Source of the DNA: Chthoniobacteraceae bacterium
GTDB lineage: Bacteria > Verrucomicrobiota > Verrucomicrobiia > Chthoniobacterales > Chthoniobacteraceae
DNA: 64,000 nt
Direction: 5' to 3'
NCBI GenBank assembly: GCA_037189965.1
Contig: JBBCKB010000006.1
Location: 13,926 to 77,925 of the forward strand
The position numbers and the translations under genes are program-made. The notes beneath the pieces were generated by a model. That model was not told the DNA's origin. It ran no database searches and was given only the letters and a program-made list of their open reading frames with translations. Positions 4,260 to 60,342 of the stretch are shown one piece after another. Each line of letters begins with the position of its first letter. The stretch's first letter is position 1.

Positions 4260-4285
4260 CATGACATCGTGGGTCCGGCGCGGAA

Positions 4286-4358
4286 GTGAGCTGTAGGGCG
4301 TCTCTGTGAGACGCCGTGGGGTTGGGCCGCCGTCTCACCGAGACGGCCTATAGTTCAC
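4286..4358 (+). repeat. REPIN-like double-hairpin palindromic element, unit A
   Basis: GTGAGCTGTAGG-GCGTCTC-tgtg-AGACGCC-GTGGGGTTGG-gcc-GCCGTCTC-accg-AGACGGC-CTATAGTTCAC. Intergenic. Confidence 0.9.
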
Positions 4359-4480
4359 GCGGTATCCCGGCGGGAAATGAAAACGCCATTCCAAAGGCGT
4401 GTCGCAAATTCTTCCAAAGAGCATAGGCGCGCGGGGGAAAAGAGGTTAGATTGGCCCGAACCTCCCTCCCCCCCCGCTCC

Positions 4481-5437
4481 ATGCCTGCCTCCACGCTTGC
4501 CCCTGCCTCCACCGCAGACCTCTCGCGGCTGCTCGACCAGCTTAACCTCATCATCGTTGGCAAGAACCGGGTGATCCGGCTGGCGGTGGCGGTGCTGCTC
4601 GCGCGCGGGCATTTGCTGCTCGAGGATGTGCCCGGCGTGGGCAAGACGACGCTTTCGCAGGCGCTGGCCCTCTCCATCGGCCTGGAGTTCCGGCGCATCC
4701 AGTTTACCAGCGACCTCCTCCCCGCCGACGTTTTGGGGAACTCGATCTTCGACGCCACCACCCGCTCCTTCATCTTCCACCGGGGGCCGCTCTTTGCCGG
4801 AGCGGTTTTGGTAGACGAGATTAACCGCGCCACCCCCAAGACCCAAAGCGCCCTGCTAGAGGCGATGGAAGAGCGCCGCGTCTCCATTGATGGCGTGGGG
4901 CACGATCTGCCGGACCCCTTCTTCGTCGTCGCCACGCAGAACCCACGCCAGCTCGGCACCTTCCCGCTGCCCGAGTCGCAGTTGGACCGCTTTCTCATGC
5001 GGCTCCACCTCGGCTTCCCGGATGCCGAGAGCGAGCGTGCCATGCTGCTGGGCGAAGACCGCTCGGCCCTGCTGCGTGGCCTGGAGCCGGTGCTCTCGGC
5101 CGAGCAGCTCCGCGACTTGCAGGGCGAGGTGGCCGCCGTACGGCCTGCCCCCGCCGTCGTGGCCTACCTGCAAGCCTTGCTGGCCGCCAGCCGGGCGCGC
5201 CACCCGGTGGGGCTCTCGCCCCGGGCGGGGCTTGCCTTCCTGCGCGCCGCCAAAGCGTGGGCCTTTATGGAAGGGCGCGATTATTTGATGCCCGAGGATC
5301 TGCAAGCCGTGGGCGTGGCTGTCATGGGCCACCGGCTCGCCTCCGGCACGCAAGAGCGAGGCGGCGTCTATGCCTCCGGCGTGGGGGATGAAGGCGAGCG
5401 CCTCGCCCAGGAGCTCCTGCAGGAGGTGCCGGTGTGA
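4481..5437 (+). CDS. MoxR-family AAA+ ATPase
   Basis: LLLEDVPGVGKTTLSQALA (Walker A), RIQFTSDLLPADVLG, VDEINRATPKTQSALLEAMEE. ATG 4481 (TTG 4451 is an alternative). Confidence 0.88.
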   Translation: MPASTLAPASTADLSRLLDQLNLIIVGKNRVIRLAVAVLLARGHLLLEDVPGVGKTTLSQALALSIGLEFRRIQFTSDLLPADVLGNSIFDATTRSFIFHRGPLFAGAVLVDEINRATPKTQSALLEAMEERRVSIDGVGHDLPDPFFVVATQNPRQLGTFPLPESQLDRFLMRLHLGFPDAESERAMLLGEDRSALLRGLEPVLSAEQLRDLQGEVAAVRPAPAVVAYLQALLAASRARHPVGLSPRAGLAFLRAAKAWAFMEGRDYLMPEDLQAVGVAVMGHRLASGTQERGGVYASGVGDEGERLAQELLQEVPV

Positions 5438-6357
5438 GGCGGGGCCGCCGCGTCCGCCCGACCTCCGGGCTGGCCGTCTACCTTTTTGTAGCGCTCGCGG
5501 TTTTATACGCGGCGGCGTGCCAGAACAATGGCGCGGCGTATATCCTCACCTTCTTCCTCTTTGCCCTGCTCGGCGTGGGGGTGATGCAGGGGCTGCAAAA
5601 CACCGCCCTGCTGGAGGCGCGGCAGGTCGGCACCGCCTACGGCATGGCCCCGGCTGCGGATGTGCCCGGCTCCGGCCGCGTGGAGGTACGGCTCGCCCTG
5701 ACCAATACCGGGCGCATCCGCGCGCGTGCCCTTTCGCTGCGGCTGGTGGGGCAACCCGGTGAGCCCACGCTGCTGCCCGCCCTCCCCCCGGGAGAAACGC
5801 GCGAGATCGTGGTGCGGCTCCATGGGCTGGCCCGGGGGCACTATGCGCTGGAAGGGGCCGAGCTAACGACCGAGTACCCCTTTGGCCTCACCCGGGTGGC
5901 CCGCACCCTGCCGCTGGAGCGGCCCGAGGGCGTCTGGATTTACCCCGCCCCGCGCCCCGGGGGCGAGCGCCCCGAGGGCCCCTCCGACCATGCGGGGACT
6001 GGCGGCGGCGGCGGGGGCGGCGAAGATTTTGCCGGGGTACGCCCGTACCGCGAGGGCGAGTCGCAACGCCATGTGGACTGGAAGGCCGTCGCCCGTGGCA
6101 ACCCGAGGATGGTCAAACAATTTGCCGGCGGGGTAGACCGCGCCCTTGTGTTGGATTGGGATTTTCTCTCCACCCCGCCCGAGGCACGGCTGCGCTCGCT
6201 CTGCTACTGGCTCTTTGAGGCCGAGCAACAAGGGGCGCGCTACGGCCTGCGCCTGCCGGGGGGCGACTTTCCGCCGGGCGGCGGCCAGGAGCACCTGCAC
6301 ACGCTGCTGCGGGCGCTGGCGAGCTTTCCCGGTGGAGCCGAAAGGGGGCCTGCATGA
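5434..6357 (+). CDS. DUF58 domain protein (MoxR partner)
   Basis: EDFAGVRPYREGESQRHVDWKAVAR signature with N-terminal TM helices. GTG start overlaps the moxR stop (GTGA). Confidence 0.8.
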   Translation: MRRGRRVRPTSGLAVYLFVALAVLYAAACQNNGAAYILTFFLFALLGVGVMQGLQNTALLEARQVGTAYGMAPAADVPGSGRVEVRLALTNTGRIRARALSLRLVGQPGEPTLLPALPPGETREIVVRLHGLARGHYALEGAELTTEYPFGLTRVARTLPLERPEGVWIYPAPRPGGERPEGPSDHAGTGGGGGGGEDFAGVRPYREGESQRHVDWKAVARGNPRMVKQFAGGVDRALVLDWDFLSTPPEARLRSLCYWLFEAEQQGARYGLRLPGGDFPPGGGQEHLHTLLRALASFPGGAERGPA

Positions 6358-8390
6358 ACGAAGCCCCCCTCTCGTGGCGCACGCTCCACGGCGTCACCTT
6401 TCGCGATGGGCTCTGGCTGGCCGTGCCGCTATTGATGGTGGTGCTCCCACTGGTACCCGACGTAGGGGTGCTGCCGGTCGGGTTTGTGGCGTTTGGCGTA
6501 TTGGCCCCCATCGTGGCCGGATGGCTGGGGCGCGCACTGCCCGGGTGGCTGCGCTGGGTGGTACTGCTGCTCGGGGTAGGGGCCGTCTACCAGACGCATG
6601 GGGCCTTTACCGGTATGGAGCCGGGGATGGCGCTGCTGCTGGTGCTCATCGCCACCAAGCTCATCGAGCTGCGCACCCCGCGCGAGTACCGGATGGTCTG
6701 CATCCTCGGCTTCTTCCTCGTCCTCTGCGGGCTCTTCTTTTCGCAGGACTTCGCGCTTTGCATGTACGAAGGGCTCGTTTTCTTCCTGCTCACCCTCGTG
6801 CTCCAGCGCTTCCATGGCGGCCCGGCAGAGGAGGCTCCGGGGGCGCGCCAGCGGCTCGCCGAGCTTTGGGCCGTGGGGCGGGCGGTGCTCATCGCGCTGT
6901 TGCAGGCGCTGCCGGTGGTGCTCATCCTCTTCGCCTTCTTCCCCCGAGCCCCTGCGGGGTTTGGAATGCAGTTTCTGCGCCGCAACGTCACCGGCATGTC
7001 GGACCACCTTGCCCCCGGCGAGGTGGAAAAGCTCGTCGAAGATGGCTCGCCCGCCTTCCGCGCCCGCTTTATCCGGGGCAACCCCGGCAGCGGCCCCTTC
7101 TACTGGCGCGGCGTGGTGCTTTGGGATGCCGGGGGGCTGGAGTGGCGGCGCGGGCTCGATCGCGACCCGGCGCCCACCATCCCCGAGCGGCAGGTGAACC
7201 GCCCGGTCGAGCAGGAGATCGTCGTCGAGCCGCACGGCGGGCACTGGCTCTTCTCGCTCGACCAGCCGCTGGCCCCCCCTGAGGGCGAGCGCCTGCTTGC
7301 AGGCCGCTACCTCACCTCCCGCCGACCGATTGACTATCGCAAGCTCTACCGCGTCGTCTCCGGCCCCCTGCGCGAGCCGTTGGACCCGATGCGGCGCCGG
7401 CAGGCGCTAGTCGTCCCCCAGGATCTGCCGCCCCGCGTACGCGAGCTGGCGGCCTCGTGGGTGGGCACCCCGCGCGAGAAAGTAAGCGAGGCGATCCGCT
7501 ACTTCTCCCGCAACTACGTTTACACGCTGGAGGCCGGCTCCTACCCGGGTAACGACGGGTGGGCGATGCTCGAGACCTTCCTCTTCGAGCGCAAGCGCGG
7601 CTTCTGCTCGCACTACGCGGCGGCGTTTGCCTCGCTCATGCGGATCAGCGGCATCCCCTCGCGGGTGATCATGGGGTACTTCGGGGGCGAGTATAACCCC
7701 GTGGGCAATTTCTACGCCATCTCGCAGGCAGATGCCCATGCGTGGTGCGAAGTCTGGCTGGAGGAAGATGGGTGGGTGCGGATCGACCCCACCCTTTTCG
7801 TTCCCGGCGGGCGGCGCAACCCCGGGGCGGCCGCCGCCGCGCGAGACCCCGCCTCCGCCACGCTGGAGCCCGAGCGCCCCCCGCGCCGCGTGCTGGAGCA
7901 GATGGATTTTCTCCAAGAGCTCCGCTTCCAGTGGGCCGCATTTAATTATGACTGGACGGTCTGGGTCCTCGGGTACGACCGCGACGTCCAGCAAGCCTTC
8001 TTCAACAAACTTGGCTTCGCCCGCCTGAGCCGGGGCATTGTCTTCCTCTGGGCGCTGGTGGCCGTGGGTCTCTTTTACCTCGCCCTGCGCTGGTACCTCA
8101 AATGGCGGGCCGCTCCCCGGGTCGATGAGCTCACGCGCGCCTACCGCCACCTTTGCGCGCGGCTCGCCGCTGTGGGCCTGCCGCGTGGTGTGGCTGAGCC
8201 TCCCGCCGCGTATGGCGCGCGCGTCATCGCCGCCCGCCCCGACTTGCGGGCCACGCTGGAGCCCCTCTTCGAGGCCTACACCCGGCTCCTCTACGCTCCG
8301 TGGAAGGAGGCCAACCCCACCGCCGCCGAGCGCAAGCTCATCCGCGAGCTGCTCTTTACCCCCATTCAGCGCGAGCAGGCCGAGCGCTGA
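6354..8390 (+). CDS. Transglutaminase-like membrane protein (TgpA-like, DUF3488 + transglutaminase core)
   Basis: Multi-TM N-terminus. Cys-His-Asp core GFCSHYAAAF ... DAHAWCEVW ... VRIDPT. ATGA overlap with the DUF58 gene. Confidence 0.85.
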   Translation: MNEAPLSWRTLHGVTFRDGLWLAVPLLMVVLPLVPDVGVLPVGFVAFGVLAPIVAGWLGRALPGWLRWVVLLLGVGAVYQTHGAFTGMEPGMALLLVLIATKLIELRTPREYRMVCILGFFLVLCGLFFSQDFALCMYEGLVFFLLTLVLQRFHGGPAEEAPGARQRLAELWAVGRAVLIALLQALPVVLILFAFFPRAPAGFGMQFLRRNVTGMSDHLAPGEVEKLVEDGSPAFRARFIRGNPGSGPFYWRGVVLWDAGGLEWRRGLDRDPAPTIPERQVNRPVEQEIVVEPHGGHWLFSLDQPLAPPEGERLLAGRYLTSRRPIDYRKLYRVVSGPLREPLDPMRRRQALVVPQDLPPRVRELAASWVGTPREKVSEAIRYFSRNYVYTLEAGSYPGNDGWAMLETFLFERKRGFCSHYAAAFASLMRISGIPSRVIMGYFGGEYNPVGNFYAISQADAHAWCEVWLEEDGWVRIDPTLFVPGGRRNPGAAAAARDPASATLEPERPPRRVLEQMDFLQELRFQWAAFNYDWTVWVLGYDRDVQQAFFNKLGFARLSRGIVFLWALVAVGLFYLALRWYLKWRAAPRVDELTRAYRHLCARLAAVGLPRGVAEPPAAYGARVIAARPDLRATLEPLFEAYTRLLYAPWKEANPTAAERKLIRELLFTPIQREQAER

Positions 8391-9556
8391 AGCCAAGTCC
8401 CCCCCGCCCAGCAGCCCCCCCCAAGCACCGCGCCGACCAGCGCGCCGAGCGCCAACGGCCACGCCCCCGTCGGCAGCAACGGCACCACCACCCCGGAGAG
8501 AAAGGCAAAAAGGAGCATGAAGACAAACGTCTGCAATGAAGCCGCCAACCCGCGCGCCTTCGGCAGCATCGCCAGCGTGCGCAGCGTCATCGCCGGAGAG
8601 GCCAGCGACATCCCCATCGCGTAAAGGGCCAGCGGTGCCACCGCCCATGGCAGCACCGGCGGCAGCCAGCGCGTGGTGGCGGCATTGGCCAGCAGGCCAA
8701 GCCCCATCACCCCAAACCCGGCACGGATCAACACCACCGGGCGGCAATGGTGGGCGAGCCGCCCGGCGAGGATCGAGCCGATCGTCATCCCCCCGATCAA
8801 CGGGCCAAAGAGCCACGCAAACTCCTGCACCCCGAGCCCCAGCACCTCCATGACAAAGAACGGAGCCGCGCCAATGTAGAGCGCCACCCCGGAGAACGAA
8901 AACGCCGTCCCCAAACAACAGAGTAGAAACGACGGGTGCCGCACCGCCTCCGCGTAGCGCTGGAGGATCTCGCCCAGGTGGAAGCGGTGCCGCTCCGCAT
9001 GCGGCAGACTCTCCGGCAGCCACCGCAGGCACGCCGCCCAGAGCAGCAGCGCGAAGAGCGCGATCACTCCGAAAATCATCCGCCACCCCGAGATCGCCAG
9101 CAACCACCCACCCAGCACCGGTGCCAACGCCGGGGCGAGCCCAAAGAGCATCGAAATATAGGCAAACGCCTTCTGCGCCTCGCGGCCCGAGAGCCGGTCA
9201 TTCACGATGGCGCGCCCGATCACCGCGCCCGCACCTGCCGAAAGCCCTTGCAGCACGCGAAAGAAAAGGAGCGCCCCGAGGCTCTCCGCCCACGCCGCGC
9301 CGAACGAAGCCACGATGTAGAGCCCCATTGCCCCCATCACCACCGGCCGCCGCCCAAATGAGTCGGAAAGCGTGCCGTAGAAGAGCGTCATCACCGCATA
9401 CGCAAAGAGGTAAACGGTGAGCGTCTGCTGCGTGGCCGCCGCCGTGGCACCAAAATCCGCCGCGATGGCAGGCAGCGCGGGGATGTACGCATCAATGGAA
9501 AGCGCCCCGAGCATCGAGAGCGCCGCGAGCAGGAAGATCAACCGCACGTGTTGCAT
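8366..9556 (-). CDS. MFS transporter, Bcr/CflA drug-resistance subfamily-like
   Basis: Start MQHVRLIFLLAALSMLGALSIDAYIPALPAIA..., motif LSDSFGRRPV, 12-TM pattern. The 596-aa track ORF was trimmed to the internal ATG at 9556. Confidence 0.8.
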   Translation of the reverse strand: MQHVRLIFLLAALSMLGALSIDAYIPALPAIAADFGATAAATQQTLTVYLFAYAVMTLFYGTLSDSFGRRPVVMGAMGLYIVASFGAAWAESLGALLFFRVLQGLSAGAGAVIGRAIVNDRLSGREAQKAFAYISMLFGLAPALAPVLGGWLLAISGWRMIFGVIALFALLLWAACLRWLPESLPHAERHRFHLGEILQRYAEAVRHPSFLLCCLGTAFSFSGVALYIGAAPFFVMEVLGLGVQEFAWLFGPLIGGMTIGSILAGRLAHHCRPVVLIRAGFGVMGLGLLANAATTRWLPPVLPWAVAPLALYAMGMSLASPAMTLRTLAMLPKARGLAASLQTFVFMLLFAFLSGVVVPLLPTGAWPLALGALVGAVLGGGCWAGGTWLQRSACSR

Positions 9557-9803
9557 TTTTGGAAAAAACAGACCCGGCAAAACAGCCGGTTTCTCCCCCC
9601 TGCTTACGCCCTTCCAGGCGGGGCGGCGAGCGGTTTCTTTGCCTCCTTCTGGGTCGCATTTGGAGGGGGTTCGGCAAGCCAAAAAAAATAAAAAAATTTC
9701 CACCTCCACGGGGTTGCGCCGTATCTCCCTTGGGGCCAGAGTAATCCAGCCTTCAGGGGGGTACAGGGGCTCTTTTGCCCCCCGTTTCGCGAGAAAGAGC
9801 GGG

Positions 9804-9832
9804 TTGACAGAAGGGGGGCTTTTTCCTATCCC
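9804..9832 (+). promoter_or_regulatory. Candidate sigma-70 promoter for nrdBA (TTGACA-17 nt-TATCCC)
   Basis: Perfect -35 hexamer at 9804-9809. Weak -10 at 9827-9832 after a 17-nt spacer, about 90 nt upstream of the nrdB ATG. Confidence 0.35.
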
Positions 9833-9854
9833 TTGGGGGCACTTCCCGGTGTAG

Positions 9855-9870
9855 CCACAATATCTTGTGG
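9855..9870. promoter_or_regulatory. NrdR-box-like 16-bp palindrome
   Basis: CCACAATATCTTGTGG matches the NrdR box consensus acaCwAtATaTwGtgt at about 13/16. It lies 54 nt upstream of nrdB. A weak second box, TTCCTATCCCTTGGGG, at 9823-9838 lies 32 bp centre to centre. Confidence 0.6.
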
Positions 9871-9923
9871 TTCCCCCCGTTTTACTCTTTGACCCCGCCT
9901 CCAACCCCAACCCCTTGCCTGCC

Positions 9924-11114
9924 ATGAGCCAAACCTTCTCTGATTCTGACGCTTCTTCCCCTGTTTTTCCCGGGGGAGATGCCGCCCCCGCGAGCACGCC
10001 TGATCTCCTTGGCGAAAGCACCGAAGGCGAGCGCGTCACCGTCACCGTTGGCAACAAAACGTTCCGGCTTGATAAAGCCAAGGCGCGGGAGCGGCTCGCG
10101 GGCAAGCAGGTCATCAACGGCATGCGCAGCGCGGAGCTCAACGTGCTTCCCCTCAAGTACCACGAGGCGTACCGGCTCTATAAGCAAATGAAGGCCAACC
10201 ACTGGGAGCCCGACGTCATCGACATGACCAAGGATTGCACCCAATGGAACACCGGGGCCCTCTCGCCCAAGGAGCGTTGGATTATCGAGATGGGAGTCGG
10301 TTACTTCTCCTCGGCCGAGGGGATCGTGGGCGACAGCGTCCTCCACGTCATCGAAGACAACCTCACCGCGGCCGAGCTCAAGCACGCCTCGCTGCGGTGG
10401 ATCGCCGAAGAGTCGATCCACATGGACTCGCTCCTGCACATCATCGGCAGCCTCAACATCGACTTGGATGAGGTGACGGCGAAGTTCCAGGACATCCCGA
10501 GCATCCGCCGCAAGAATGCCTTTATCACCCGGCACATGCCGGAGCTGAAGATGGGGCTGGACCTCACGCAGACGGAGAACAAGCGCAAGTTTGCCAAAGC
10601 GCTCTTCGGCATCACCCAGGTGATGGAGGGGACGCAGTTCTACGCCCTCTTTGCCATGATCCTCTCGCTCCACCGGCAAAACAAAATGACCGGCATCGGC
10701 CAGATGTTCCAGTACACCCTGCGCGACGAGTCCAACCACATCGCGCTGGGGCGCTACCTGCTCACCGAGCTTTTCCGGGAAAACCCGGACATCCGCACCC
10801 CCGAGTTTGAGAAAGAGCTCATCGACTTCATGGTCGAAGGCGTGGCACTGGAGAAAGAGTTTGTCCGCGATTGCTTGCCTGAAGACGGCGTCGGGATGAC
10901 GCAGAAAGACTTCCTCGAGTACGTCGACTTCAACTCCGACCGCCGGCTCACCAGCCTCGGGCTCCCGGCGCAATCCACCGTGAAGGCCAACCCCTTCCTC
11001 TGGCTCGATGAAGTCATCTTCCTCAAGAAGGAGAAGAATTTCTTTGAAACCCGCGTCACCGAGTACCAGACGGGCGGGTCGATGAAAAACACCCGCGAAG
11101 ACGATCTGATCTGA
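9924..11114 (+). CDS. nrdB: Ribonucleotide-diphosphate reductase beta subunit (R2), class Ic-like
   Basis: Ferritin-like diiron ligand pattern AEGIVGD / EESIH / MEGTQF / RDESNH and HWEPDVIDMTKD. ATG 9924 (MSQTF...) chosen within the ORF from 9867. Confidence 0.88.
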   Translation: MSQTFSDSDASSPVFPGGDAAPASTPDLLGESTEGERVTVTVGNKTFRLDKAKARERLAGKQVINGMRSAELNVLPLKYHEAYRLYKQMKANHWEPDVIDMTKDCTQWNTGALSPKERWIIEMGVGYFSSAEGIVGDSVLHVIEDNLTAAELKHASLRWIAEESIHMDSLLHIIGSLNIDLDEVTAKFQDIPSIRRKNAFITRHMPELKMGLDLTQTENKRKFAKALFGITQVMEGTQFYALFAMILSLHRQNKMTGIGQMFQYTLRDESNHIALGRYLLTELFRENPDIRTPEFEKELIDFMVEGVALEKEFVRDCLPEDGVGMTQKDFLEYVDFNSDRRLTSLGLPAQSTVKANPFLWLDEVIFLKKEKNFFETRVTEYQTGGSMKNTREDDLI

Positions 11115-11141
11115 CGCAATCCCTCCCCTCCCTTTTCCGCA

Positions 11142-13982
<2,841 letters not shown>

Positions 13983-13992
13983 GAAAAGAACT

Positions 13993-14562
13993 ATGAGCGT
14001 CCAATCAGACCGGTGGATCCGCCGGATGGCCCAGGAATGCGGGATGATCGAGCCCTTTGCCGACGGGCAGACCCGCGAAGGGGCTGACGGCAAGCGGATC
14101 ATCTCCTACGGCCTCTCCAGCTACGGGTATGACCTGCGAGTCTCCCGCGAGTTCAAAGTCTTCACCAACGTCTTCAATACCGTCGTAGACCCCAAAGCGT
14201 TTGACCCCCAATCCTTCGTCGATATCGAGACGGATATGTGCGTCATCCCGCCGAACTCGTTTGCGCTCGCGCGCAGCGTCGAGTACTTCCGCATCCCGCG
14301 CGGTGTGTTGACCATGTGCGTGGGCAAGAGCACGTATGCGCGGTGTGGCATCATCGTCAATGTCACCCCCTTCGAGCCCGAGTGGGAAGGGCACGTGACA
14401 CTGGAGATCTCCAACACCACCCCGCTCCCCGCGCGCATCTATGCCAATGAAGGGCTCGCGCAAGTCGTCTTCTTCGCGGGGAATGAGGAATGCGAAGTCT
14501 CCTACGCCGATCGTGGCGGGAAGTACCACAAACAGACCGGCATTACCGTCCCGAGGATGTAG
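13993..14562 (+). CDS. dcd: dCTP deaminase
   Basis: [22 protein letters not shown]...SYGYDLRV...[31 protein letters not shown]. 189 aa. Confidence 0.9.
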
Positions 14563-14645
14563 GGTGGGCAGGGGTCAAGTCCCCCAAGAGCCCAAAGCCG
14601 ATTGATGAAAAGATCGTCGGCTCCAAAGGGGGAAGGAGCAATGGG

Positions 14646-14912
14646 ATGGCCTCTTCGAGAAAACAGAATGTCGTCGGGGCGGAAGTCGCCCGGCAGCGGC
14701 GTGCCTTGGGCTTGGGGCAAAGCGATCTGGCGGCCCGGCTTACCCGGCTGGGGTGGGATTGCTCCGAAAACCTCGTCAGCAAAATCGAGGCGGGGTTTCG
14801 CCGGGTGATCGATGAAGAGAGCGTCCTCCTCGCACGCGCGCTGGGGCTGCCACCCGGGGCGCTGTTTCCGGGTGATTCACGCAGGAAGGATGTACCCCGC
14901 CCTTTGCACTGA
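14646..14912 (+). CDS. XRE-family helix-turn-helix transcriptional regulator (small, orphan)
   Basis: VGAEVARQRRALGLGQSDLAARL...VSKIEAG HTH pattern. Shine-Dalgarno GGAAGGAG lies 7 nt upstream of ATG 14646. Confidence 0.65.
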   Translation: MASSRKQNVVGAEVARQRRALGLGQSDLAARLTRLGWDCSENLVSKIEAGFRRVIDEESVLLARALGLPPGALFPGDSRRKDVPRPLH

Positions 14913-14987
14913 CAATCGGGTTCCCACGCCAAAGCGGCGCAGCGCCCGCAGCGCCGCCGCGTTGGGAAAACAGGCACAGTAACAGGA

Positions 14988-15125
14988 AATTGTATCCAAC
15001 CCCATGGCGTCTCACAGAGACGCCCTACAATTCTTCCTCGCCCGAGCGTCGTTTGACCCATTGTAGGCCGTTTCGGTGAAACGGCGGTTCAAACCCATGG
15101 CGTCTCGCAGAGACGCCCCAAATAC
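14988..15125 (-). repeat. REP array B: one singlet unit (14988-15032), 26-nt spacer, one doublet unit (15059-15125)
   Basis: CCAACCCCATGGCGTCTCACAGAGACGCCCTACAAT ... CATTGTAGGCCGTTTCGGTGAAACGGCGGTTCAAACCCATGGCGTCTCGCAGAGACGCCCC. Near-identical to array C. Confidence 0.9.
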
Positions 15126-15165
15126 AACCTTGGAAAAACGGAATACCCCCTTTTAAAAATGATCG

Positions 15166-15560
15166 GTGCGGCCACCCCGAATCTCCAACTGGGTCTCCGG
15201 AGAAAAGCCGCCTCTCTATTTCGTCACCCTATGCGTGCAACACCGCCGCAAGGTGCTCGATTGTCCCCAAGCGTGGGCCGCATGCCAACTTGCCTGGAAA
15301 CGGCTTGACCGATGGGCAATACCCGCCGCACTGGCGATGCCGGATCATCTGCATCTGATCCTTTCGCCCGTGCACGACCGGGATGAATCCTTGAGCTCCT
15401 TTTTCAAATGCTTCAAACGCTGGTACGAGGTTTTGACCGCCTCTTGCGCAACGACGAAAGCCTTTCCGCAAAATGGGAATACATCCGGCAAAACCCGGTT
15501 CGAGCCGGTTTGGTAAAACGGTGGGAGGAATGGCCGTACCGGCTCGAGCACGCTTTGTAG
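15166..15560 (+). pseudogene. REP-associated tyrosine transposase (RAYT / Y1 HUH transposase, IS200-like superfamily), frameshifted
   Basis: Frame 1 carries LYFVTLCVQHRRKVL and the HUH motif MPDHLHLILSP. The C-terminal signature WEYIRQNPVRAGLVKRWEEWPYRL (catalytic Tyr) is in another frame, from about 15429 to stop 15558-15560. One extra T in the T4 run 15431-15434 would fuse them into about 131 aa. Confidence 0.75.
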
Positions 15561-15714
15561 GCTGGTCTGGCGAAAATCGCACTCCAACCCCGCGGCGTCT
15601 CACAGAGACGCCCTACAATTCTTCCCCACCCGAGCGTCGTTTGACCCATTGTAGGCCGTTTCTGTGAAACGGCAGTCCAAACCCATGGTGTCTCACCGAG
15701 ACACCCCGAAATAC
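15555..15714 (-). repeat. REP array C: one doublet with a decayed arm (15555-15620), 26-nt spacer, one doublet (15647-15714)
   Basis: Same unit order, orientation and spacer sequence (TCTTCC..CCCGAGCGTCGTTTGACCC) as array B. The first unit overlaps the RAYT stop codon. Confidence 0.9.
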
Positions 15715-15715
15715 C

Positions 15716-16750
15716 TTACCCTCCAAACCGCATTCGATACGTAGGAATCTCCCCCAGTGGCTCGGCGGCGTAGACACCCCGGCTCACGGCGCGGGCCACG
15801 CAGTCTGCTGCGACGGAGCCAAGCCACATCAAATCGCGCAGGCGGCCCTCCCCCTCGGCCAGCGGCACGGTGCCGGTGGCGAGCATGAAGAGGACATCGC
15901 CATCCACATGCGAGTGGATCGGCCGTAGCGAACGCGCCAGCCCATCCTGCGCCATGATGGCGATCCGCTTCGCCTCAGCGGGGGTGAGGATGGCGTTGGT
16001 CGCTACCACGCCGATCGTCGTATTCCCCCCCGGCGCGAGCGGGCGATACTCCAGCCGGCTGGCGCGGAACGGGTCTTCCCCCGAAACGGCGGGCACCCCC
16101 GTGGGCCAGCCGCGCCCGCCAAACTCCGCCCCCAGCTCATACGGCGCGGCCCAGAAATGCGGCGTGCCGGGGATCAGCGCGGAGCCAAACGCATTCACCG
16201 CGATGAGTGCGCCGACTTGCAAGCCCTCCTCCACCGCGCTGGCCGAGCCGAGCCCGCCTTTGAGGTCGCCGCACATCGCCCCCATGCCCGCGCCCACATT
16301 GCCGAGCGCAAAGTCATGCCCCACCGCTTCGCACGCCTGGCGGCCCCACTCGCGGTAGGGGGGCATCTCGCCCCACGCTTTGTCGCCGCCGTTGGGGAGG
16401 TCGAAGAGGATCGCCCCCGGCACCACGGGCGAGACGCGCGGCGTCTCCCCCAAGCTAAAGCCACGCCCCCGGTGCCCGAGCCAGCCGACGACGCCGCAGG
16501 GCGCCTCCATCCCATACACCGAGCCGCCCGAGAGGACGACGGCATCCACCGCATCCACGAGGCACGAAGGGTCGAGCGCATCCGTCTCGCGAGTACCCGG
16601 TGCACCGCCGCGCACGTCGCAAGCGGCCACGGCGCGGGCATCGGGCAGGATGAGGGTGACGCCACTGCGCACCGAGGCGCACTCCACATTGCCGACGCGC
16701 AGGCCATCCACATCGGTGATCAAATTCCGGGGGCCGGGGGTAATTGCCAT
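15716..16750 (-). CDS. P1-family peptidase (DmpA / L-aminopeptidase-like, peptidase S58)
   Basis: MAITPGPRNLITDVDGLRVGN..., VVLSGGSVYG self-processing region, IGVVATNA. Track ORF trimmed to ATG at 16750. Confidence 0.75.
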   Translation of the reverse strand: MAITPGPRNLITDVDGLRVGNVECASVRSGVTLILPDARAVAACDVRGGAPGTRETDALDPSCLVDAVDAVVLSGGSVYGMEAPCGVVGWLGHRGRGFSLGETPRVSPVVPGAILFDLPNGGDKAWGEMPPYREWGRQACEAVGHDFALGNVGAGMGAMCGDLKGGLGSASAVEEGLQVGALIAVNAFGSALIPGTPHFWAAPYELGAEFGGRGWPTGVPAVSGEDPFRASRLEYRPLAPGGNTTIGVVATNAILTPAEAKRIAIMAQDGLARSLRPIHSHVDGDVLFMLATGTVPLAEGEGRLRDLMWLGSVAADCVARAVSRGVYAAEPLGEIPTYRMRFGG

Positions 16751-16826
16751 AAGGCCATTGGTGATACCGGCCCGGCCCCCGGTTAGGCAAGCGCAAGCCT
16801 TGTCAACCCGGCGGAGGTGAGCCACA

Positions 16827-17957
16827 TTGCGGGAATCTATGAACGATCCTCGGTTTGATAAACTGGCCCGCCTGCTCACCAGCCACTCCACCCAGCTTCG
16901 CAAGGGGGATAAAGTGCTGATCGAGGGGTTCGACATCCCCGTGGAGATGATGATCGCCCTCGTACGCGCCGCGCGCGAGGCCGGGGCGCTCCCGCTGGTG
17001 CAGCTCCATAGCGCCCGCCTCTCGCGCGAGATGGCGCTCGGCGCGGAAGAGGCGCAGTACGCCACACTCGCCAAGGCGGAGCTGGCCAAGATGAAGGAGA
17101 TGGATGCCTACATCGCCGTGCGCGGCTCGGAAAATATTGCCGAGCTTTCCGACGTGCCCGCCGGGCAGATGAAGATCGTCTCTTCCAAGATGAAGCCCGT
17201 GCTCGACCACCGCGTCAAAAAAACGCGCTGGTGTGTCCTGCGCTGGCCCACCCCCTCCATGGCCCAGCAGGCGGGGATGAGCACCGCCGCGTTTGAGGAT
17301 TTCTTCTTCAAAGTCTGCACGCTCGACTACTCCCGCATGCAGCGCGGCATGAAGGCGCTCGTGGCGCTGATGGACAAGACCGACCGCGTGGAGATCAAAG
17401 GCCCGGGGACGGACCTGCGCTTCTCCATCAAAAACATCCCCGCCATTGCCTGCGGCGGCACCCACAACATCCCCGATGGCGAGGTCTTCACCGCGCCGGT
17501 GCGCAACTCCGTGCAGGGGGAGATCACCTTCAACGCGCCGACGATCTACCAAGGCACGCCGTTTGATTCGATCCGCCTCAAGTTTAAAGATGGCCGCGTT
17601 GTCGAGGCGACCTCCAACAACACCGCCCGGCTCAACCAGATTCTCGATTCCGACCCCGGCGCGCGCTTCATCGGTGAGTTTGCCCTCGGGTTTAACCCCT
17701 ACATCCTCCACCCGATGCGCGACATTCTCTTTGACGAGAAGATCTCCGGCTCCTTCCACTTCACCCCCGGGCAGTGCTACGAGCAGACGGAGAATGGGAA
17801 CCGCTCGCAAGTCCACTGGGATATGGTGAACATCCAGCGGGAAGATTACGGCGGCGGTACCATCCACTTTGACGGCAAGCTCGTGCGGGAGAATGGCCTC
17901 TTTACCCCCAAAGCGCTGCAAGCCCTCAACCCGGAGTACCTGACCGGCGAGCGGTAA
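16827..17957 (+). CDS. Aminopeptidase, peptidase family M29 (PepS/AmpS-like)
   Basis: [29 protein letters not shown]..., [17 protein letters not shown] 16827 has GGAGG 9 nt upstream; ATG 16839 is the alternative start. Confidence 0.8.
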
Positions 17958-20955: not shown

Positions 20956-21025
20956 GTGAGCTGTAGAGCGTCTTTGTGAGACGGCACTCCAACCCCATGG
21001 CGCCTCACAGAGACGCCCTACAATT
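20956..21025 (-). repeat. REPIN-like element, unit D (one stem partly decayed)
   Basis: GTGAGCTGTAGAGCGTCTTTGTGAGACGGCACTCCAACCCCATGGCGCCTCACAGAGACGCCCTACAATT, between convergent lon and lysR. Confidence 0.85.
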
Positions 21026-27262: not shown

Positions 27263-27330
27263 GTGAACTGTAGGGCGTCTCTGTGAGACGCCGTGGGGTT
27301 GGACCGCCGTCTCACAGAGACGGCCTACAG
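27263..27330 (+). repeat. REPIN-like element, unit E
   Basis: GTGAACTGTAGGGCGTCTCTGTGAGACGCCGTGGGGTTGGACCGCCGTCTCACAGAGACGGCCTACAG. The best-preserved copy. Confidence 0.92.
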
Positions 27331-27364
27331 TTGCCCGCTTTCGCATCGAACCGGCAAATCATCC

Positions 27365-35201: not shown

Positions 35202-35265
35202 ATTGTAGGGCGTTTCTGTGAAACGCCATGGGGTTGGGCTGCCGTCTCACAGAGACGGCCTACCG
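35202..35265 (+). repeat. REPIN-like element, unit F (compensated stem variant GGCGTTTC/GAAACGCC)
   Basis: ATTGTAGGGCGTTTCTGTGAAACGCCATGGGGTTGGGCTGCCGTCTCACAGAGACGGCCTACCG. Overlaps the glgA stop codon. Confidence 0.88.
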
Positions 35266-36696
35266 TTCATGCTTCGCGGCGCTTGCGTACACCTGCTCGT
35301 AGCGGGCGGCGGCGGTGCTCCATGAGAAGTCGGCCTCCATCGCCCGGGCGCGCAGGGCGGCCCAGTGCGCGGCATCCTCAAACGCGGCGCGGGCGCGGGC
35401 CAGCGCATCCCAAAAGGCTTCGGGCGTTTCTTCAAAAAAGAGGAAGCCGGTGCCGGGGGTGGCCGGGTCGTCATCGCGGATAATCTGGTGGAGCCCTCCG
35501 GTGGCGTGCGCCACCGGCACGGTGCCGTAGAGCTGCGCGTACATGGCCGTGAGCCCGCACGGCTCGTAGCGCGAGGGGGCGAGGAAGACATCCGCCCCCG
35601 CCATGAGCCGGTGCGAAAGCGCCTCGTCAAACCCTTGGCGGAAGGCGAACTTGCCGGGGTGCCGCCGTGCGGCCACGAGCAGCTCGCGCTCCCACCGGGC
35701 CTCGCCCTCGCCGAGGATCGCCAGCCGCACATCATCCGCCAGCAGGCGGTCGAGCAGTGGGGTGAGCCACGCCAGCCCCTTCTGCTCCACGAGCCGCCCC
35801 ACCAGCGCAAAGACAGGGCCGCGCGCCTCGGGCAGGAGCCCCAGCTCCTCCAGCAAGGCCGAGCGGCAGAGCGCCTTGCCGGAAAGATCTTCCGCGGAAT
35901 AGCGGGCGGGGAGGGCGGCATCGTGCGCCGGGCTCCAGCGGGTGGTATCCACCCCATTGAGGATGCCGCGCAGGCGGCCCGCGCGGGCACGCAGGATGCC
36001 GTCGAGCCCGCACCCGCCTTCGGGCGTGCAGATCTCGCGCGCATACGGCTCGCTCACCGTGGTGATTGCGTCGGCAAAGGCGATGCCCGCCTTCATGAAG
36101 TTAAACGCGCCCCACGCTTCCACCCCCTCCGCGTTGTAGTAGGCCCAAGGCAACCCCGCAAGCCCGAAGCTTTCCGGCGGGAAGGCCCCCTGGTGAGCGA
36201 GGTTGTGGATGGTGTAGACCGTCGCAAATGGCAGCCCCGCCTCCCGCACCATGGCGGGCACGAGCGCCGTGGGCCAATCGTGCAAATGCAGCACTTCGGG
36301 GGAGGGGTCTAAATGCCGGGCCAGCTCGGTGACCGCGCGGCAGAACCAGGTAAACCGCGCCGCGTTATCCTCATACGCGCTCCCGGCATCCGGGCCGTAG
36401 AGGCCGGGGCGGTCGAAAAAGCGGTCGCACCCGAGCAGAAAGAGGGGGACTCCGTTGGGGGCCACCCCTTCGTACACCTGCACATCCAAGCGCTGGCCAC
36501 CGCCGAGCACCACCGGCAGCGAGACCCCCGTGGCCTCTACCGGGAGGTAGGCGCGCACTTGCGGGTAGAGCGGCAGCGCCACCGCCACCTCGTGCCCCCG
36601 GGCCCGGAGTGCGGCGGGGAGCGCCTCCAGCACATCGCCCAAGCCGCCCGTGCGCACCAAAGGCGCCATCTCTGCCGTCGCCATGAGAATCTTCAT
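35260..36696 (-). CDS. glgA: Glycogen synthase (GT5, ADP-glucose type)
   Basis: MKILMATAEMAPLVRTGGLGDV (KTGGL-type motif), 478 aa. Track ORF trimmed to ATG at 36696. Confidence 0.9.
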   Translation of the reverse strand: MKILMATAEMAPLVRTGGLGDVLEALPAALRARGHEVAVALPLYPQVRAYLPVEATGVSLPVVLGGGQRLDVQVYEGVAPNGVPLFLLGCDRFFDRPGLYGPDAGSAYEDNAARFTWFCRAVTELARHLDPSPEVLHLHDWPTALVPAMVREAGLPFATVYTIHNLAHQGAFPPESFGLAGLPWAYYNAEGVEAWGAFNFMKAGIAFADAITTVSEPYAREICTPEGGCGLDGILRARAGRLRGILNGVDTTRWSPAHDAALPARYSAEDLSGKALCRSALLEELGLLPEARGPVFALVGRLVEQKGLAWLTPLLDRLLADDVRLAILGEGEARWERELLVAARRHPGKFAFRQGFDEALSHRLMAGADVFLAPSRYEPCGLTAMYAQLYGTVPVAHATGGLHQIIRDDDPATPGTGFLFFEETPEAFWDALARARAAFEDAAHWAALRARAMEADFSWSTAAARYEQVYASAAKHER

Positions 36697-36785: not shown

Positions 36786-36850
36786 GTTGTAGGCCGTTTC
36801 TGTGAAACGGCGGTCCAACCCGATGGCGTCTCACAGAGACGCCCTACAAT
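36786..36850 (-). repeat. REPIN-like element, unit G (compensated stem variant GCCGTTTC/GAAACGGC)
   Basis: GTTGTAGGCCGTTTCTGTGAAACGGCGGTCCAACCCGATGGCGTCTCACAGAGACGCCCTACAAT. Confidence 0.88.
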
Positions 36851-60164: not shown

Positions 60165-60274
60165 AAGCGTGTAAAGGGGAGGTTAACGAAACCGTGGCTC
60201 AAAAGGCAATGCCTTTCTTAGTGGCCGGTATTGCCGCGTTAAGTGATCTGCCGGCTCGGGGCGAGAGCGGGCAA

Positions 60275-60342
60275 CTGTAGGGCGTCTCTGTGAGACGCCG
60301 TGGGGTTGGACTGCCGTCTCACAGAGACGCCTTATAGTTCAC
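60275..60342 (+). repeat. REPIN-like element, unit H
   Basis: CTGTAGGGCGTCTCTGTGAGACGCCGTGGGGTTGGACTGCCGTCTCACAGAGACGCCTTATAGTTCAC. Confidence 0.9.

Follow-up and report, generated by a model that had tools for sequence, protein, structure and literature searches.

A probable decayed REPtron in Verrucomicrobiota: a RAYT gene apparently inactivated among its own REPINs

Overview

We propose, with a probability of roughly 85%, that this locus is a decayed REPtron, in which a RAYT gene lying amid its own REPINs was inactivated by an internal deletion. As in a REPtron, four REPIN units flank the gene and six copies of the same family lie elsewhere in the window (the whole 64-kb stretch of DNA analysed here). 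Coordinates of the gene halves, the deletion and the REPIN units are collected in Table 1.

Table 1. Features of the RAYT locus and REPIN copies in the window.
Feature	Position	Strand	Description
Putative RAYT pseudogene, N-terminal part	15166..15426	+	frame 1, GTG start; tblastn to P0001 residues 1-87, 61% identity
Deletion junction	15425..15429	+	loss of 37 nt within the gene, as compared with the intact relatives L082 and L085 (37-column gap, DNA alignment)
Putative RAYT pseudogene, C-terminal part	15429..15560	+	frame 3; tblastn to P0001 residues 101-137, 81% identity
Array B unit 1	14988..15031	+	REPIN lacking left REP stem-loop (23-column alignment gap); outer ATTGTA head kept
Array B unit 1, right REP	hairpin 15006-15024, CTAC 15025-15028	+	intact
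Array B unit 1, nhmmer match	14995-15031	+	model positions 32-68, E 1e-11
Linker copy 1	15032..15059	+	28 nt, non-REP, TCTTCCTCGCCCGAGCGTCGTTTGACCC
Array B unit 2	15059..15125	+	full REPIN; nhmmer E 4e-21, exact pattern matches, ssDNA fold
Array B unit 2, left REP	15063-15085	+	GTAG + 8-bp stem + 3-nt loop
Array B unit 2, right REP	hairpin 15099-15117	+	CTAC head degenerate (CCCCAAAT)
Array C unit 1	15553..15620	+	REPIN; degenerate left REP (GTAGGCTGGTCTGGCGAAAATCGC) overlapping RAYT gene 3' end; nhmmer E 2e-17
Array C unit 1, right REP	hairpin 15594-15612 + CTAC	+	intact
Linker copy 2	15620..15647	+	28 nt; 2 mismatches to copy 1
Array C unit 2	15647..15714	+	full REPIN; nhmmer E 2e-20
Array C unit 2, left GTAG REP	15651-15673	+
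Array C unit 2, right hairpin	15687-15705	+	differs from array B by a compensatory C>T / G>A pair
Dispersed REPIN	4289..4356	-	nhmmer E 2e-21; opposite orientation; far end of ~10.5-kb inverted segment
Dispersed REPIN	20959..21025	+	pattern and nhmmer
Dispersed REPIN	about 27266-27334	-	single long ssDNA hairpin, -31.8 kcal/mol, z = -10
Dispersed REPIN	35202..35267	-	pattern and nhmmer
Dispersed REPIN	36786..36850	+	copy closest to those flanking the gene (GCCGTTTC stem, ATTGTAG/CTACAAT ends)
Dispersed REPIN	60273..60340	-	pattern and nhmmer

Family assignment of the gene

An earlier note on this DNA had called the gene a RAYT-type HUH transposase, and profile and fold searches bear this out. 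The NCBIfam model NF047646 (REP_Tyr_transpos) matches the frame-corrected gene product at E 1.9e-19 and 70 bits, a score lowered by the deletion and set against a curated cut-off of 80; intact relatives score 78.9, 80.7, 91.5 and 70.5 bits with the same model, and the NCBIfam model transpos_IS200 reaches 12 bits only. Homology to NF047646 is clear, though at the margin of the curated model. When a profile of the family was searched against the PDB, the TnpAREP structure 4ER8 (E 6e-13) came ahead of ISDra2 TnpA (E 9e-5). An AF2 model of P0001, the nearest intact relative (pLDDT 92), had 4ER8_A as its best Foldseek match (TMq 0.69), with IS200/IS605 TnpAs at ~0.52. TnpAREP is thus closer than IS200/IS605 TnpA by both sequence profile and fold. 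Residues H61, H63 and Y107 are invariant in the family alignment, and all 392 homologs found are single ORFs, many of them named RayT by JGI. These results support the assignment of the gene as a RAYT-type HUH/Y1 gene.

The check proposed earlier, Pfam Y1_Tnp (PF01797), nominally fails for the window protein (13 bits against a cut-off of 23), and intact relatives, at 16-17 bits, fail as well. The model is therefore too insensitive for this clade, and we dropped it as the deciding test, judging identity instead by NCBIfam, the PDB profile search and the fold search. Because intact relatives lie at or just under the NCBIfam cut-off and below the Pfam cut-off, the gene appears to represent a divergent branch of the RAYT family.

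An internal deletion in the gene

The earlier reference to a 'frame-corrected protein' implied a broken reading frame, and the gene is indeed split across frames 1 and 3: the tblastn match to RAYT proteins is divided over the two frames, with residues 88-100 missing. Frame 1 encodes MPDHLHLIL, with the HUH motif H-L-H at 15346-15354; as it stands, the ORF in this frame (15166-15516) has 116 aa, runs out of frame past the deletion and stops at 15514-15516. The frame 3 ORF (15408-15560) encodes WEYIRQNPVRAGLV, with the catalytic Tyr codon TAC at 15480-15482, and it ends in a TAG stop (15558-15560) supplied by the GTAG head (15557-15560) of the adjoining REP. DNA and protein alignments place a 37-nt deletion near 15426 that removes 13 residues, corresponding to P0001 88-100 (FNEAVQPEWKWME), and shifts the frame. 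Among the lost residues are W95, W97 and G100, of which W97 is invariant and the other two are at least 90% conserved. In the AF2 model the lost residues form the end of helix 76-91 and the following loop. The same model rules out the loss of a core beta-strand, as strand 102-105 is retained.

As a consequence of the deletion, the HUH motif and the catalytic Tyr lie in different frames and, though both are encoded and family-invariant, do not occur in one polypeptide in the present gene. The sole remaining ORF has the HUH motif without the Tyr, so this copy is predicted to be unable to cut or join DNA. Judged by its sequence, the gene is most simply described as a pseudogene inactivated by the frameshifting deletion, and the suggestion that it is the probable source or mobiliser of the dispersed elements fails for the present day. 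Intact relatives are ~146 aa long and 59-61% identical. Outside the deletion, all residues invariant among 16 relatives have been kept, and no additional stop codon interrupts either half, for which reasons the inactivation looks recent. The public record L001 has a 100% identical sequence and no gene called at the locus; the deletion rests on one sequence, given that L001 may stem from the same reads, and the gap may be an assembly artefact or a minority allele.

A tblastn search found a single RAYT copy in the 64-kb window. An Rfam scan of 13500-17000 returned nothing relevant, and a consensus scan for promoters and terminators detected neither a terminator-like site nor, ahead of the RAYT gene, a plus-strand promoter.

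Flanking arrays

The bracketing of the gene by near-identical arrays in the same orientation, as first described, was recovered by a repeat search of the window as a 128-nt direct repeat (14995-15122 and 15583-15710) with 91% identity and a spacing of 588 nt. In a gapped alignment of 14995-15125 with 15583-15714, 120 of 132 positions are identical. The description of each array as unit, spacer and unit stands as regards the duplicated architecture and needs revision as regards the parts: each array comprises two REPINs (inverted pairs of 23-nt GTAG REP hairpins), the first of array B being without its left REP, and the linker between them measures 28 nt. Both REP orientations are present on either side of the gene, with GTAG heads at 15063 and 15651 and, on the minus strand, at 15025-15028 and 15613-15616. 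The contrast drawn in the earlier note between direct flanks here and inverted flanks in published REPtrons was thus a mis-parse of arrays that are themselves built of inverted REP pairs.

As ssDNA, both arrays fold far more stably than shuffled sequences (z = -5.4 and -5.3). Among the 12 differences between them none disrupts a stem, and one pair of changes within a stem is compensatory. Array C ends 1 nt short of the stop codon of a convergent S58 peptidase gene (15716-15718, minus strand). No further copy of the linker was found in the window or in 172 other loci; since it is confined to the two arrays, the REPIN-linker-REPIN block on the two sides of the gene is a local segmental duplication of a BIME-like cluster, now 9% diverged.

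The REPIN family in the window

The stem pattern, defined with a 3-nt loop, has 16 matches in the window where ~1 is expected. An nhmmer search with a REPIN profile identified 10 copies, of which four, all on the plus strand, lie at the RAYT locus and six are dispersed. The 66-nt consensus, AATTGTAGGCCGTCTCTGTGAGACGGC-AGTCCAACCCCAT-GGCGTCTCACAGAGACGCCCTACAATT, consists of two inverted REPs and a short spacer. Both methods place the flanking hairpins in the same REP family as the dispersed copies, as had been claimed, and hence identify a REPtron. The REP sequence GTAGGCCGTTTCGGTGAAACGGC is a predicted TnpAREP-like substrate.

The REPINs scattered through the window are in good condition, and several have perfect stems. 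This fits a recently active enzyme and hence, possibly, a second intact RAYT outside the window; if one flanked by the GCCGTCTC variant is present in the genome, it would point to mobilisation in trans.

Genomic context

The unit and the XRE gene, between dcd and the peptidase gene, had been viewed as an accessory insertion. The RAYT locus is indeed specific to this lineage in its position: a sister species lacks it both after dcd-XRE and after the S58 peptidase gene (contigs L168 and L173). The XRE gene is not an insertion, as it is conserved beside dcd in that species (81% aa). The proposed search for an empty site likewise found the locus absent but the sister site rearranged rather than cleanly empty. 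By blastn, ~10.5 kb of the window (~4405-14890) is inverted relative to L168 and L173, two contigs that are assumed, no more, to come from one genome, and the RAYT site lies at one breakpoint of this inversion. Both inversion junctions in the window carry REPIN-family sequence, mutually inverted, and homology to the sister resumes at 15720, within ~5 nt of the end of array C. The sister junctions carry no REPIN and instead have a RES-Xre toxin-antitoxin pair and a different palindrome.

Only these two contigs were informative for the empty-site comparison, the contig of P0242 being too short. Look-ups found no contig with the exact dcd protein or P0243, synteny with the window ends at nrdJ-dcd in 80 metagenome dcd loci (at most 85% aa identity), and no outgroup that could polarise the inversion was found.

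RAYT loci across the clade

The intact RAYTs closest to this one (L082, L085-87) have unrelated gene neighbourhoods, yet share its flanking REP sequence and likewise have their TAG stop in the GTAG head of a REP. At about 23 of 80 related RAYT loci the two flanks share a same-orientation match of 60 nt or longer, and at 6 one of 100 nt or longer; REPIN arrays that bracket the gene in a shared orientation are a common feature of this Verrucomicrobial clade. Inside single MAGs, RAYT paralogs are 44-79% identical. Among 86 RAYT loci (GTDB genomes and look-ups), none has nrdJ, dcd, XRE, S58 or M29 beside the RAYT gene.

Discussion

By analogy with the TnpAREP proteins of E. coli, S. maltophilia and Marinomonas, the intact gene would have encoded a ~146-aa RAYT/TnpAREP, an HUH-Y1 ssDNA endonuclease. 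This enzyme is predicted to have recognised 23-nt REP hairpins (GTAG, an 8-bp stem and a 3-nt loop), cleaved at nearby CT dinucleotides via a 5'-phosphotyrosine intermediate and rejoined the strands, and would thereby have multiplied REP doublets (REPINs) around the genome. The binding and cleavage specificity is the one expected from homology to TnpAEc, TnpASm and TnpAMb (PMC8266576). The 37-nt deletion would later have killed the enzyme at this locus, and the dispersed REPINs may be fossils of past activity or may be served in trans by a RAYT outside the window. The hairpins beside the gene have probably been retained as passive elements, possibly with a role in terminating or stabilising transcripts where the convergent genes meet.

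Comparison with known systems

Published REPtrons have BIMEs on their borders and resemble IS200/IS605 elements; they apparently do not transpose as a unit, and certain E. coli strains no longer have tnpAREP (PMC3333891, PMC6006769). The E. coli REPtron comprises three REPINs (PMC6006769). Like the E. coli K-12 REPtron (tnpAREP/yafM, PMC3333891, 4ER8), the locus described here has a small HUH-Y1 gene with GTAG-headed REP clusters on both sides, made of inverted pairs and linkers, and further members of this REP family are scattered over the genome; 4ER8 is the top match by profile and fold. The two also share loss or replacement in related lineages, with hicAB toxin-antitoxin in E. coli and the RES-Xre pair at the sister's equivalent junction here. 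In contrast to E. coli TnpAREP, to which sequence identity is ~21% (4ER8), the REP stems are short (8 bp) and perfect, lacking the bulge on which E. coli TnpAREP depends, the gene appears to be a pseudogene, and the flanks form a 128-nt direct duplication that includes a unique linker.

The REP design instead matches that of group 3 RAYT/REPIN systems (the S. maltophilia REPtron Sm and Pseudomonas fluorescens SBW25; PMC8266576, PMC3116915, PMC3337134), in which a 23-nt REP has GTAG directly followed by a perfect 8-bp palindrome with a 3-nt loop, as in the group 3 REPSm (PMC8266576). Other shared features are the arrangement of REPs as REPINs, an own REP family for each RAYT and divergent paralogs in one genome. 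Unlike those systems, the host belongs to the Verrucomicrobiota (Chthoniobacterales-like by best matches) rather than the Proteobacteria, and the protein is shorter (~146 aa). With IS200/IS605 elements (IS608, ISDra2) the locus shares the HUH-Y1 core and sub-terminal hairpins with a 5' guide tetranucleotide in the same strand orientation at both gene ends. It departs from them in its weaker fold and profile similarity, in a Tyr signature (Y-I-R-Q-N-P) that is not the IS-type motif, and in having multi-REPIN arrays with no defined LE/RE, no tnpB and, within the 64-kb window, no multiple identical copies.

Alternative explanations

A gene that still functions would require that the 37-nt gap be an assembly or sequencing error, that a -1 ribosomal frameshift restore the product or that the 116-aa HUH-only fragment be active. 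The intact state of both halves outside the gap and the well-kept dispersed REPINs are what such a gene would show, and passage from frame 1 to the C-terminal frame does need a -1 shift. However, the sequence is identical in two public records, and programmed frameshifting was rejected: inspection of the 15408-15516 overlap revealed no slippery heptamer of the form X XXY YYZ, and fusion of the frames would still leave the product short of the 13 residues that include W95, W97 and G100. Against this reading also stand the single ORFs of all 392 homologs and the need of HUH enzymes for a Tyr nucleophile, Y-to-F mutants of three TnpAREP proteins being inactive (PMC8266576); we regard it as highly improbable. 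We consider it very unlikely that the arrays and the gene together form, or formed until recently, an autonomous element of the IS200/IS605 kind, with the GTAG REPs at 15063 and 15651 acting as LE and RE so that a ~588-nt single-stranded circle with the RAYT gene on it would be excised and reinserted. GTAG REPs do occur on the same strand both upstream and downstream of the gene, flanks in a common orientation are found repeatedly in the clade, the nearest homologs occupy wholly different gene neighbourhoods, the unit is missing at the matching junctions of the sister species, and Ton-Hoang et al. noted the resemblance of REPtrons to IS200/IS605 (PMC3333891). Yet the gene is broken and only one copy is present in 64 kb; the shared 128-nt flanks include a non-REP linker, an outcome of local duplication rather than an IS200/IS605 LE/RE; MAG paralogs are far less alike than the near-identical copies of an active IS; homologs, at no more than 61% identity, have diverged too far for transposition to be read from their lost synteny; and RAYTs in the literature are single-copy and vertically inherited and do not move as units (PMC3333891, PMC6006769). 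The earlier proposal that the whole 727-bp unit is mobile therefore finds no support in the single visible copy or in the paralogs, which are not IS-like. A related idea, that gene and arrays are still excisable as an IS200-like unit intermediate between an IS and a fully domesticated REPtron, is also very unlikely; if true, it would explain the homologs in unrelated contexts, the bracketing direct repeats of at least 100 nt in several lineages and the sister's toxin-antitoxin pair at the REPtron site.

Rearrangement is a possible, if tentative, contributor to the present shape of the locus. In this account, recombination between inverted REPINs (4289-4356 and the RAYT locus) produced the ~10.5-kb inversion and, as side effects, both the duplicated arrays and the present position of the locus, the second array being the remnant of a duplicated REPtron cut at the breakpoint. 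The inverted segment itself, the mutually inverted REPIN sequences at both of its junctions and the close fit of the end of array C to the point where sister homology resumes all speak for it. The sister junctions are less accommodating, with the RES-Xre pair and another palindrome in place of a REPIN; the junction REPINs differ in sub-variant and have no chimeric structure; the common origin of the two sister contigs is an assumption; and no outgroup was found to show the ancestral arrangement. This account in any case explains location only and does not compete with the reading of the locus as a decayed REPtron.

Significance

Two-sided BIME-like arrays, a GTAG head that supplies the TAG stop, IS200-like geometry and loss or replacement of the locus in relatives have all been described in Proteobacteria. 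Because every architectural feature was known before, the current view of REPtrons is unchanged. What the locus adds is a documented RAYT/REPIN system in an uncultured, soil-type member of the Verrucomicrobiota, seemingly caught soon after inactivation of its transposase. Such cases, combined with whole genomes, could help to address the rate at which a REPIN population decays after the death of its RAYT, and the possible link of REPIN clusters to rearrangement breakpoints.

Identity of the gene between the arrays

Two overlapping open reading frames in different frames lie between the array copies, one at 15166–15516, with a product that includes ...AMPDHLHLILSP..., and one at 15408–15560, with a product that includes ...KWEYIRQNPVRAGLV... 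The earlier note had read this gene as a REP-associated tyrosine transposase (RAYT, or TnpAREP) and proposed a search with the Pfam model Y1_Tnp. That search gave the window protein only 13 bits against a cut-off of 23; because intact relatives, at 16–17 bits, also fall below the cut-off, the model is uninformative for this clade. The RAYT-specific NCBIfam model NF047646 matched a frame-corrected translation at E 1.9e-19 (70 bits for a cut-off of 80, which the 70.5–91.5 bits of intact relatives span). A protein search returned 392 homologs of about 146 amino acids, the best 59–61% identical, mostly in Verrucomicrobia/Chthoniobacterales metagenome bins and many carrying the JGI name RayT. A profile of 17 homologs matched PDB 4ER8, the E. 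coli TnpAREP with a bound REP hairpin, at E 6e-13 and ISDra2 TnpA at 9e-5. The AlphaFold2 model of the nearest intact relative P0001 (pLDDT 92) likewise has 4ER8_A as its best fold match (TMq 0.69, versus about 0.52 for IS200/IS605 transposases). The gene thus belongs to the RAYT/TnpAREP family.

A deletion disables the gene

Alignment against two intact relatives reveals a 37-column DNA gap in the window gene after ...AAACGCTGGT, and tblastn splits the gene into residues 1–87 in one frame and 101–137 in another. As a consequence of this 37-nt deletion, the HUH motif (15346–15354) and the catalytic tyrosine (15480–15482) are in different frames. The lost residues (FNEAVQPEWKWME in P0001) correspond to the end of helix 76–91 and the loop after it in the P0001 model, and include W97, invariant in a 38-sequence alignment, as well as W95 and G100, each conserved in at least 90% of its sequences. 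Reading of the ORF overlap region found no slippery heptamer for a programmed frameshift, and the public record of the locus has no gene called at the RAYT site. Outside the gap, all residues invariant among 16 relatives are still present and neither gene half contains extra stop codons, which suggests that inactivation was recent.

A dispersed REPIN family and a duplicated flanking block

The hairpin family is dispersed through the window, as the earlier note had proposed. The stem pattern GGCGTCTC-N3-GAGACGCC has 16 matches with up to three mismatches allowed (about one expected), and its GTAG-headed variant has nine (none expected). Read side by side and aligned, the copies resolve into a REPIN of ~66 nt, in which two inverted 23-nt REPs, each composed of GTAG, an 8-bp stem and a 3-nt loop, surround a ~13-nt spacer (consensus AATTGTAGGCCGTCTCTGTGAGACGGC AGTCCAACCCCAT GGCGTCTCACAGAGACGCCCTACAATT). 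The group 3 REPSm of S. maltophilia has the same REP design. An nhmmer profile finds 10 copies, six of them dispersed and four at the RAYT locus, with orientation told from scores of about 70 bits forward versus about 30 bits reverse.

REPINs and linkers in the window
Feature	Position	Strand	Detail
Dispersed REPIN	4291–4356	-	nhmmer
Array B, incomplete REPIN	14988–15031	+	without left REP
Array B, linker copy 1	15032–15059		28 nt
Array B, complete REPIN	15059–15123	+	
Array C, REPIN	15553–15620	+	left REP degenerate; overlaps gene end
Array C, linker copy 2	15620–15647		28 nt; 2 mismatches to array B linker
Array C, complete REPIN	15647–15712	+	
Dispersed REPIN	20959–21025	+	nhmmer
Dispersed REPIN	27266–27332	-	nhmmer
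Dispersed REPIN	35202–35267	-	nhmmer
Dispersed REPIN	36786–36850	+	nhmmer
Dispersed REPIN	60273–60340	-	nhmmer

Two REPIN sub-variants occur in the window. One, with GTGAACTGTAGG ends and GCCGTCTC stems, makes up most dispersed copies (4289, 27266, 35202 and 60273); the other, with ATTGTAGG ends and a compensated GCCGTTTC/GAAACGGC stem, is found around the pseudogene (14988–15714) and at 36786. They could reflect the presence of two REPIN sub-populations in this genome, or of two RAYTs.

Two direct array copies do bracket the gene. A repeat search of the window pairs 14995–15122 with 15583–15710 (128 nt, 91% identity, 588 nt apart), and a gapped alignment of 14995–15125 with 15583–15714 has 120 of 132 positions identical. 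No further copy of the linker turned up elsewhere in the window or among 172 other loci. This makes the direct repeat a local segmental duplication of a REPIN-linker-REPIN block rather than the product of independent insertions. None of the 12 differences between the arrays breaks a stem, and two of them (15101 C>T and 15115 G>A) compensate each other within the third hairpin. Folded as single-stranded DNA, the arrays are far more stable than shuffled sequences (z about -5.3). Because the arrays consist of inverted REP pairs, each side of the gene has REPs in both orientations. The contrast once drawn with the inverted REPs of published REPtrons (RAYT genes with flanking REP or REPIN clusters) thus falls away, the E. 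coli REPtron itself consisting of three REPINs (PMC6006769).

The architecture recurs among related RAYT loci

We examined 84 related loci, or 80 once the redundant contigs L083, L084, L086 and L087 were removed. The nearest intact RAYTs reside in unrelated gene neighbourhoods (P0002 in L082–84, P0001 in L085–87), flanked by essentially the same REP as in the window (GTAGGCCGTCTCTGTGAGACGGC). In the window (15557–15560), L082 (6433–6436) and L085, the TAG stop falls within the GTAG head of the downstream REP. A GTAG-embedded stop recurs in 42 of the 84 loci, and a hairpin starts no more than 5 nt past the stop in 33 (29 of 80), most such hairpins having an 8-bp stem directly after GTAG and a stem sequence that differs among lineages. 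Di Nocera et al. (2013; PMC3733652) had already described GTAG REPs that overlap the 3' ends of RAYT genes and provide their TAG stops. Besides the window and its nearest relatives, about 25–30 further loci among L002–L081, roughly a third of the 80, have a stop made up of the last three bases of the downstream REP's GTAG head, even though REP stems vary from lineage to lineage.

In about 23 of the 80 loci the upstream and downstream flanks share a direct match of 60 nt or more; in six (L052, L025, L060, L062, L023 and L076) the match reaches 100 nt or more, with REPIN-plus-linker tandem units. The window architecture is therefore normal for its RAYT clade. The earlier note had raised the possibility that the whole 727-bp array-gene-array unit moves in an IS200-like manner, for which the GTAG REPs that lie on one strand at 15063 and 15651 would give suitable geometry. 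However, a single copy is visible in the window, the flanks resemble a duplication and not left and right element ends, and related MAGs contain divergent paralogs, so that this mode of movement, though conceivable, is not supported. RAYT pairs from one MAG are 44–79% identical, which points to each REP family having one gene and not to a proliferating IS.

A second 146-aa gene lies at L086:1267–1707 (-), 600 nt downstream of the P0001 RAYT with further REPs between; tblastn did not match it to RAYT, and no Pfam hit is recorded for it.

Genomic setting and comparison with a sister organism

Contig JBBCKJ010017601.1 of GCA_037189345.1 matches the window at 100% identity. No nrdJ, dcd, XRE, S58 or M29 gene was found near RAYT in 86 other RAYT loci, and 80 metagenome dcd loci show no synteny with the window beyond nrdJ-dcd. 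Two contigs from the same assembly, L173 and L168, belong to a sister organism and were informative. L173 carries nrdJ-dcd (91% nucleotide identity), an extra SLOG-like ORF, the XRE gene (81% amino acid identity over 81 residues), a ParS-like antitoxin and a RES toxin, followed by the reverse complement of window 4259–3855. L168 carries M29-S58 (87% identity, reverse complement of window 17946–15720), a 155-nt spacer with a 25-bp inverted repeat, and window 4405–7450 (82% identity). Provided that the two contigs derive from one genome, the segment ~4405–14890 (MoxR ... nrdJ-dcd-XRE) appears inverted between the organisms; no outgroup was found to polarise the inversion. The window junctions (4260–4404 and 14890–15719) hold the minus-strand REPIN at 4289–4356 and the plus-strand REPtron, respectively. 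The sister junctions (L173:1700–2986 and L168:3570–3724) hold the RES-Xre toxin-antitoxin pair and a different palindrome, and neither contains a REPIN.

This layout indicates that the REPtron is lineage-specific at the dcd-XRE/S58 site and that the XRE gene is a conserved dcd neighbour. The earlier note had counted the XRE gene as part of an accessory insertion, which it is not. The sister contigs show a rearranged site rather than a clean empty dcd-to-peptidase interval, for which the earlier note had proposed to look. The likeness to E. coli is close: the REPtron is present or absent between relatives, the sister having a RES-Xre pair where E. coli has hicAB. There, some strains carry hicAB in place of tnpAREP and its BIMEs, and others show a precise deletion of them (PMC3333891).

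Several further features of the window and these contigs were observed. The S58/P1-family peptidase gene (window 15716–16750, -) has 70–73% GC, against about 57–65% around it. Its homologs include one 94% sister copy and several at 73–77%, one of them from a named Chthoniobacteraceae; the other best named homologs are from Hyphomicrobium (Alphaproteobacteria; 73–74% identity). This may point to horizontal acquisition of the S58-M29 pair, whose context in L168 also differs on both sides. The extra ORF of L173 (784–1359, -), inserted between dcd and XRE, encodes a 191-aa SLOG/DprA-like protein with weak Pfam matches; in the window, dcd and XRE are only 59 nt apart. In the S58-MoxR spacer of L168 (3580–3705), the arms of the perfect 25-bp inverted repeat (CGCGATAGCGTCTTGGAGTGCGGCG ... 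CGCCGCACTCCAAGACGCTATCGCG) are about 70 nt apart; the repeat is absent from the window and could be a MITE- or REPIN-like element of another kind.

Implications for RAYT-REPIN biology

By analogy with characterized family members, the intact enzyme would have recognised single-stranded REP hairpins with a GTAG head, made its cuts at CT dinucleotides via a phosphotyrosine linkage and, by rejoining strands, spread the REPINs (PMC3333891, PMC3479197, PMC8266576). The present gene copy is presumably inert, and the REPINs would be either fossils or elements on which another RAYT, encoded elsewhere in the genome, acts in trans. What the earlier note observed is confirmed and its interpretation partly supported. 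With a TnpAREP homolog disabled by deletion, a segmentally duplicated flanking block and structured REPINs dispersed in the window, the locus is a decayed REPtron, a RAYT-REPIN system of a well-described kind in an under-sampled phylum.
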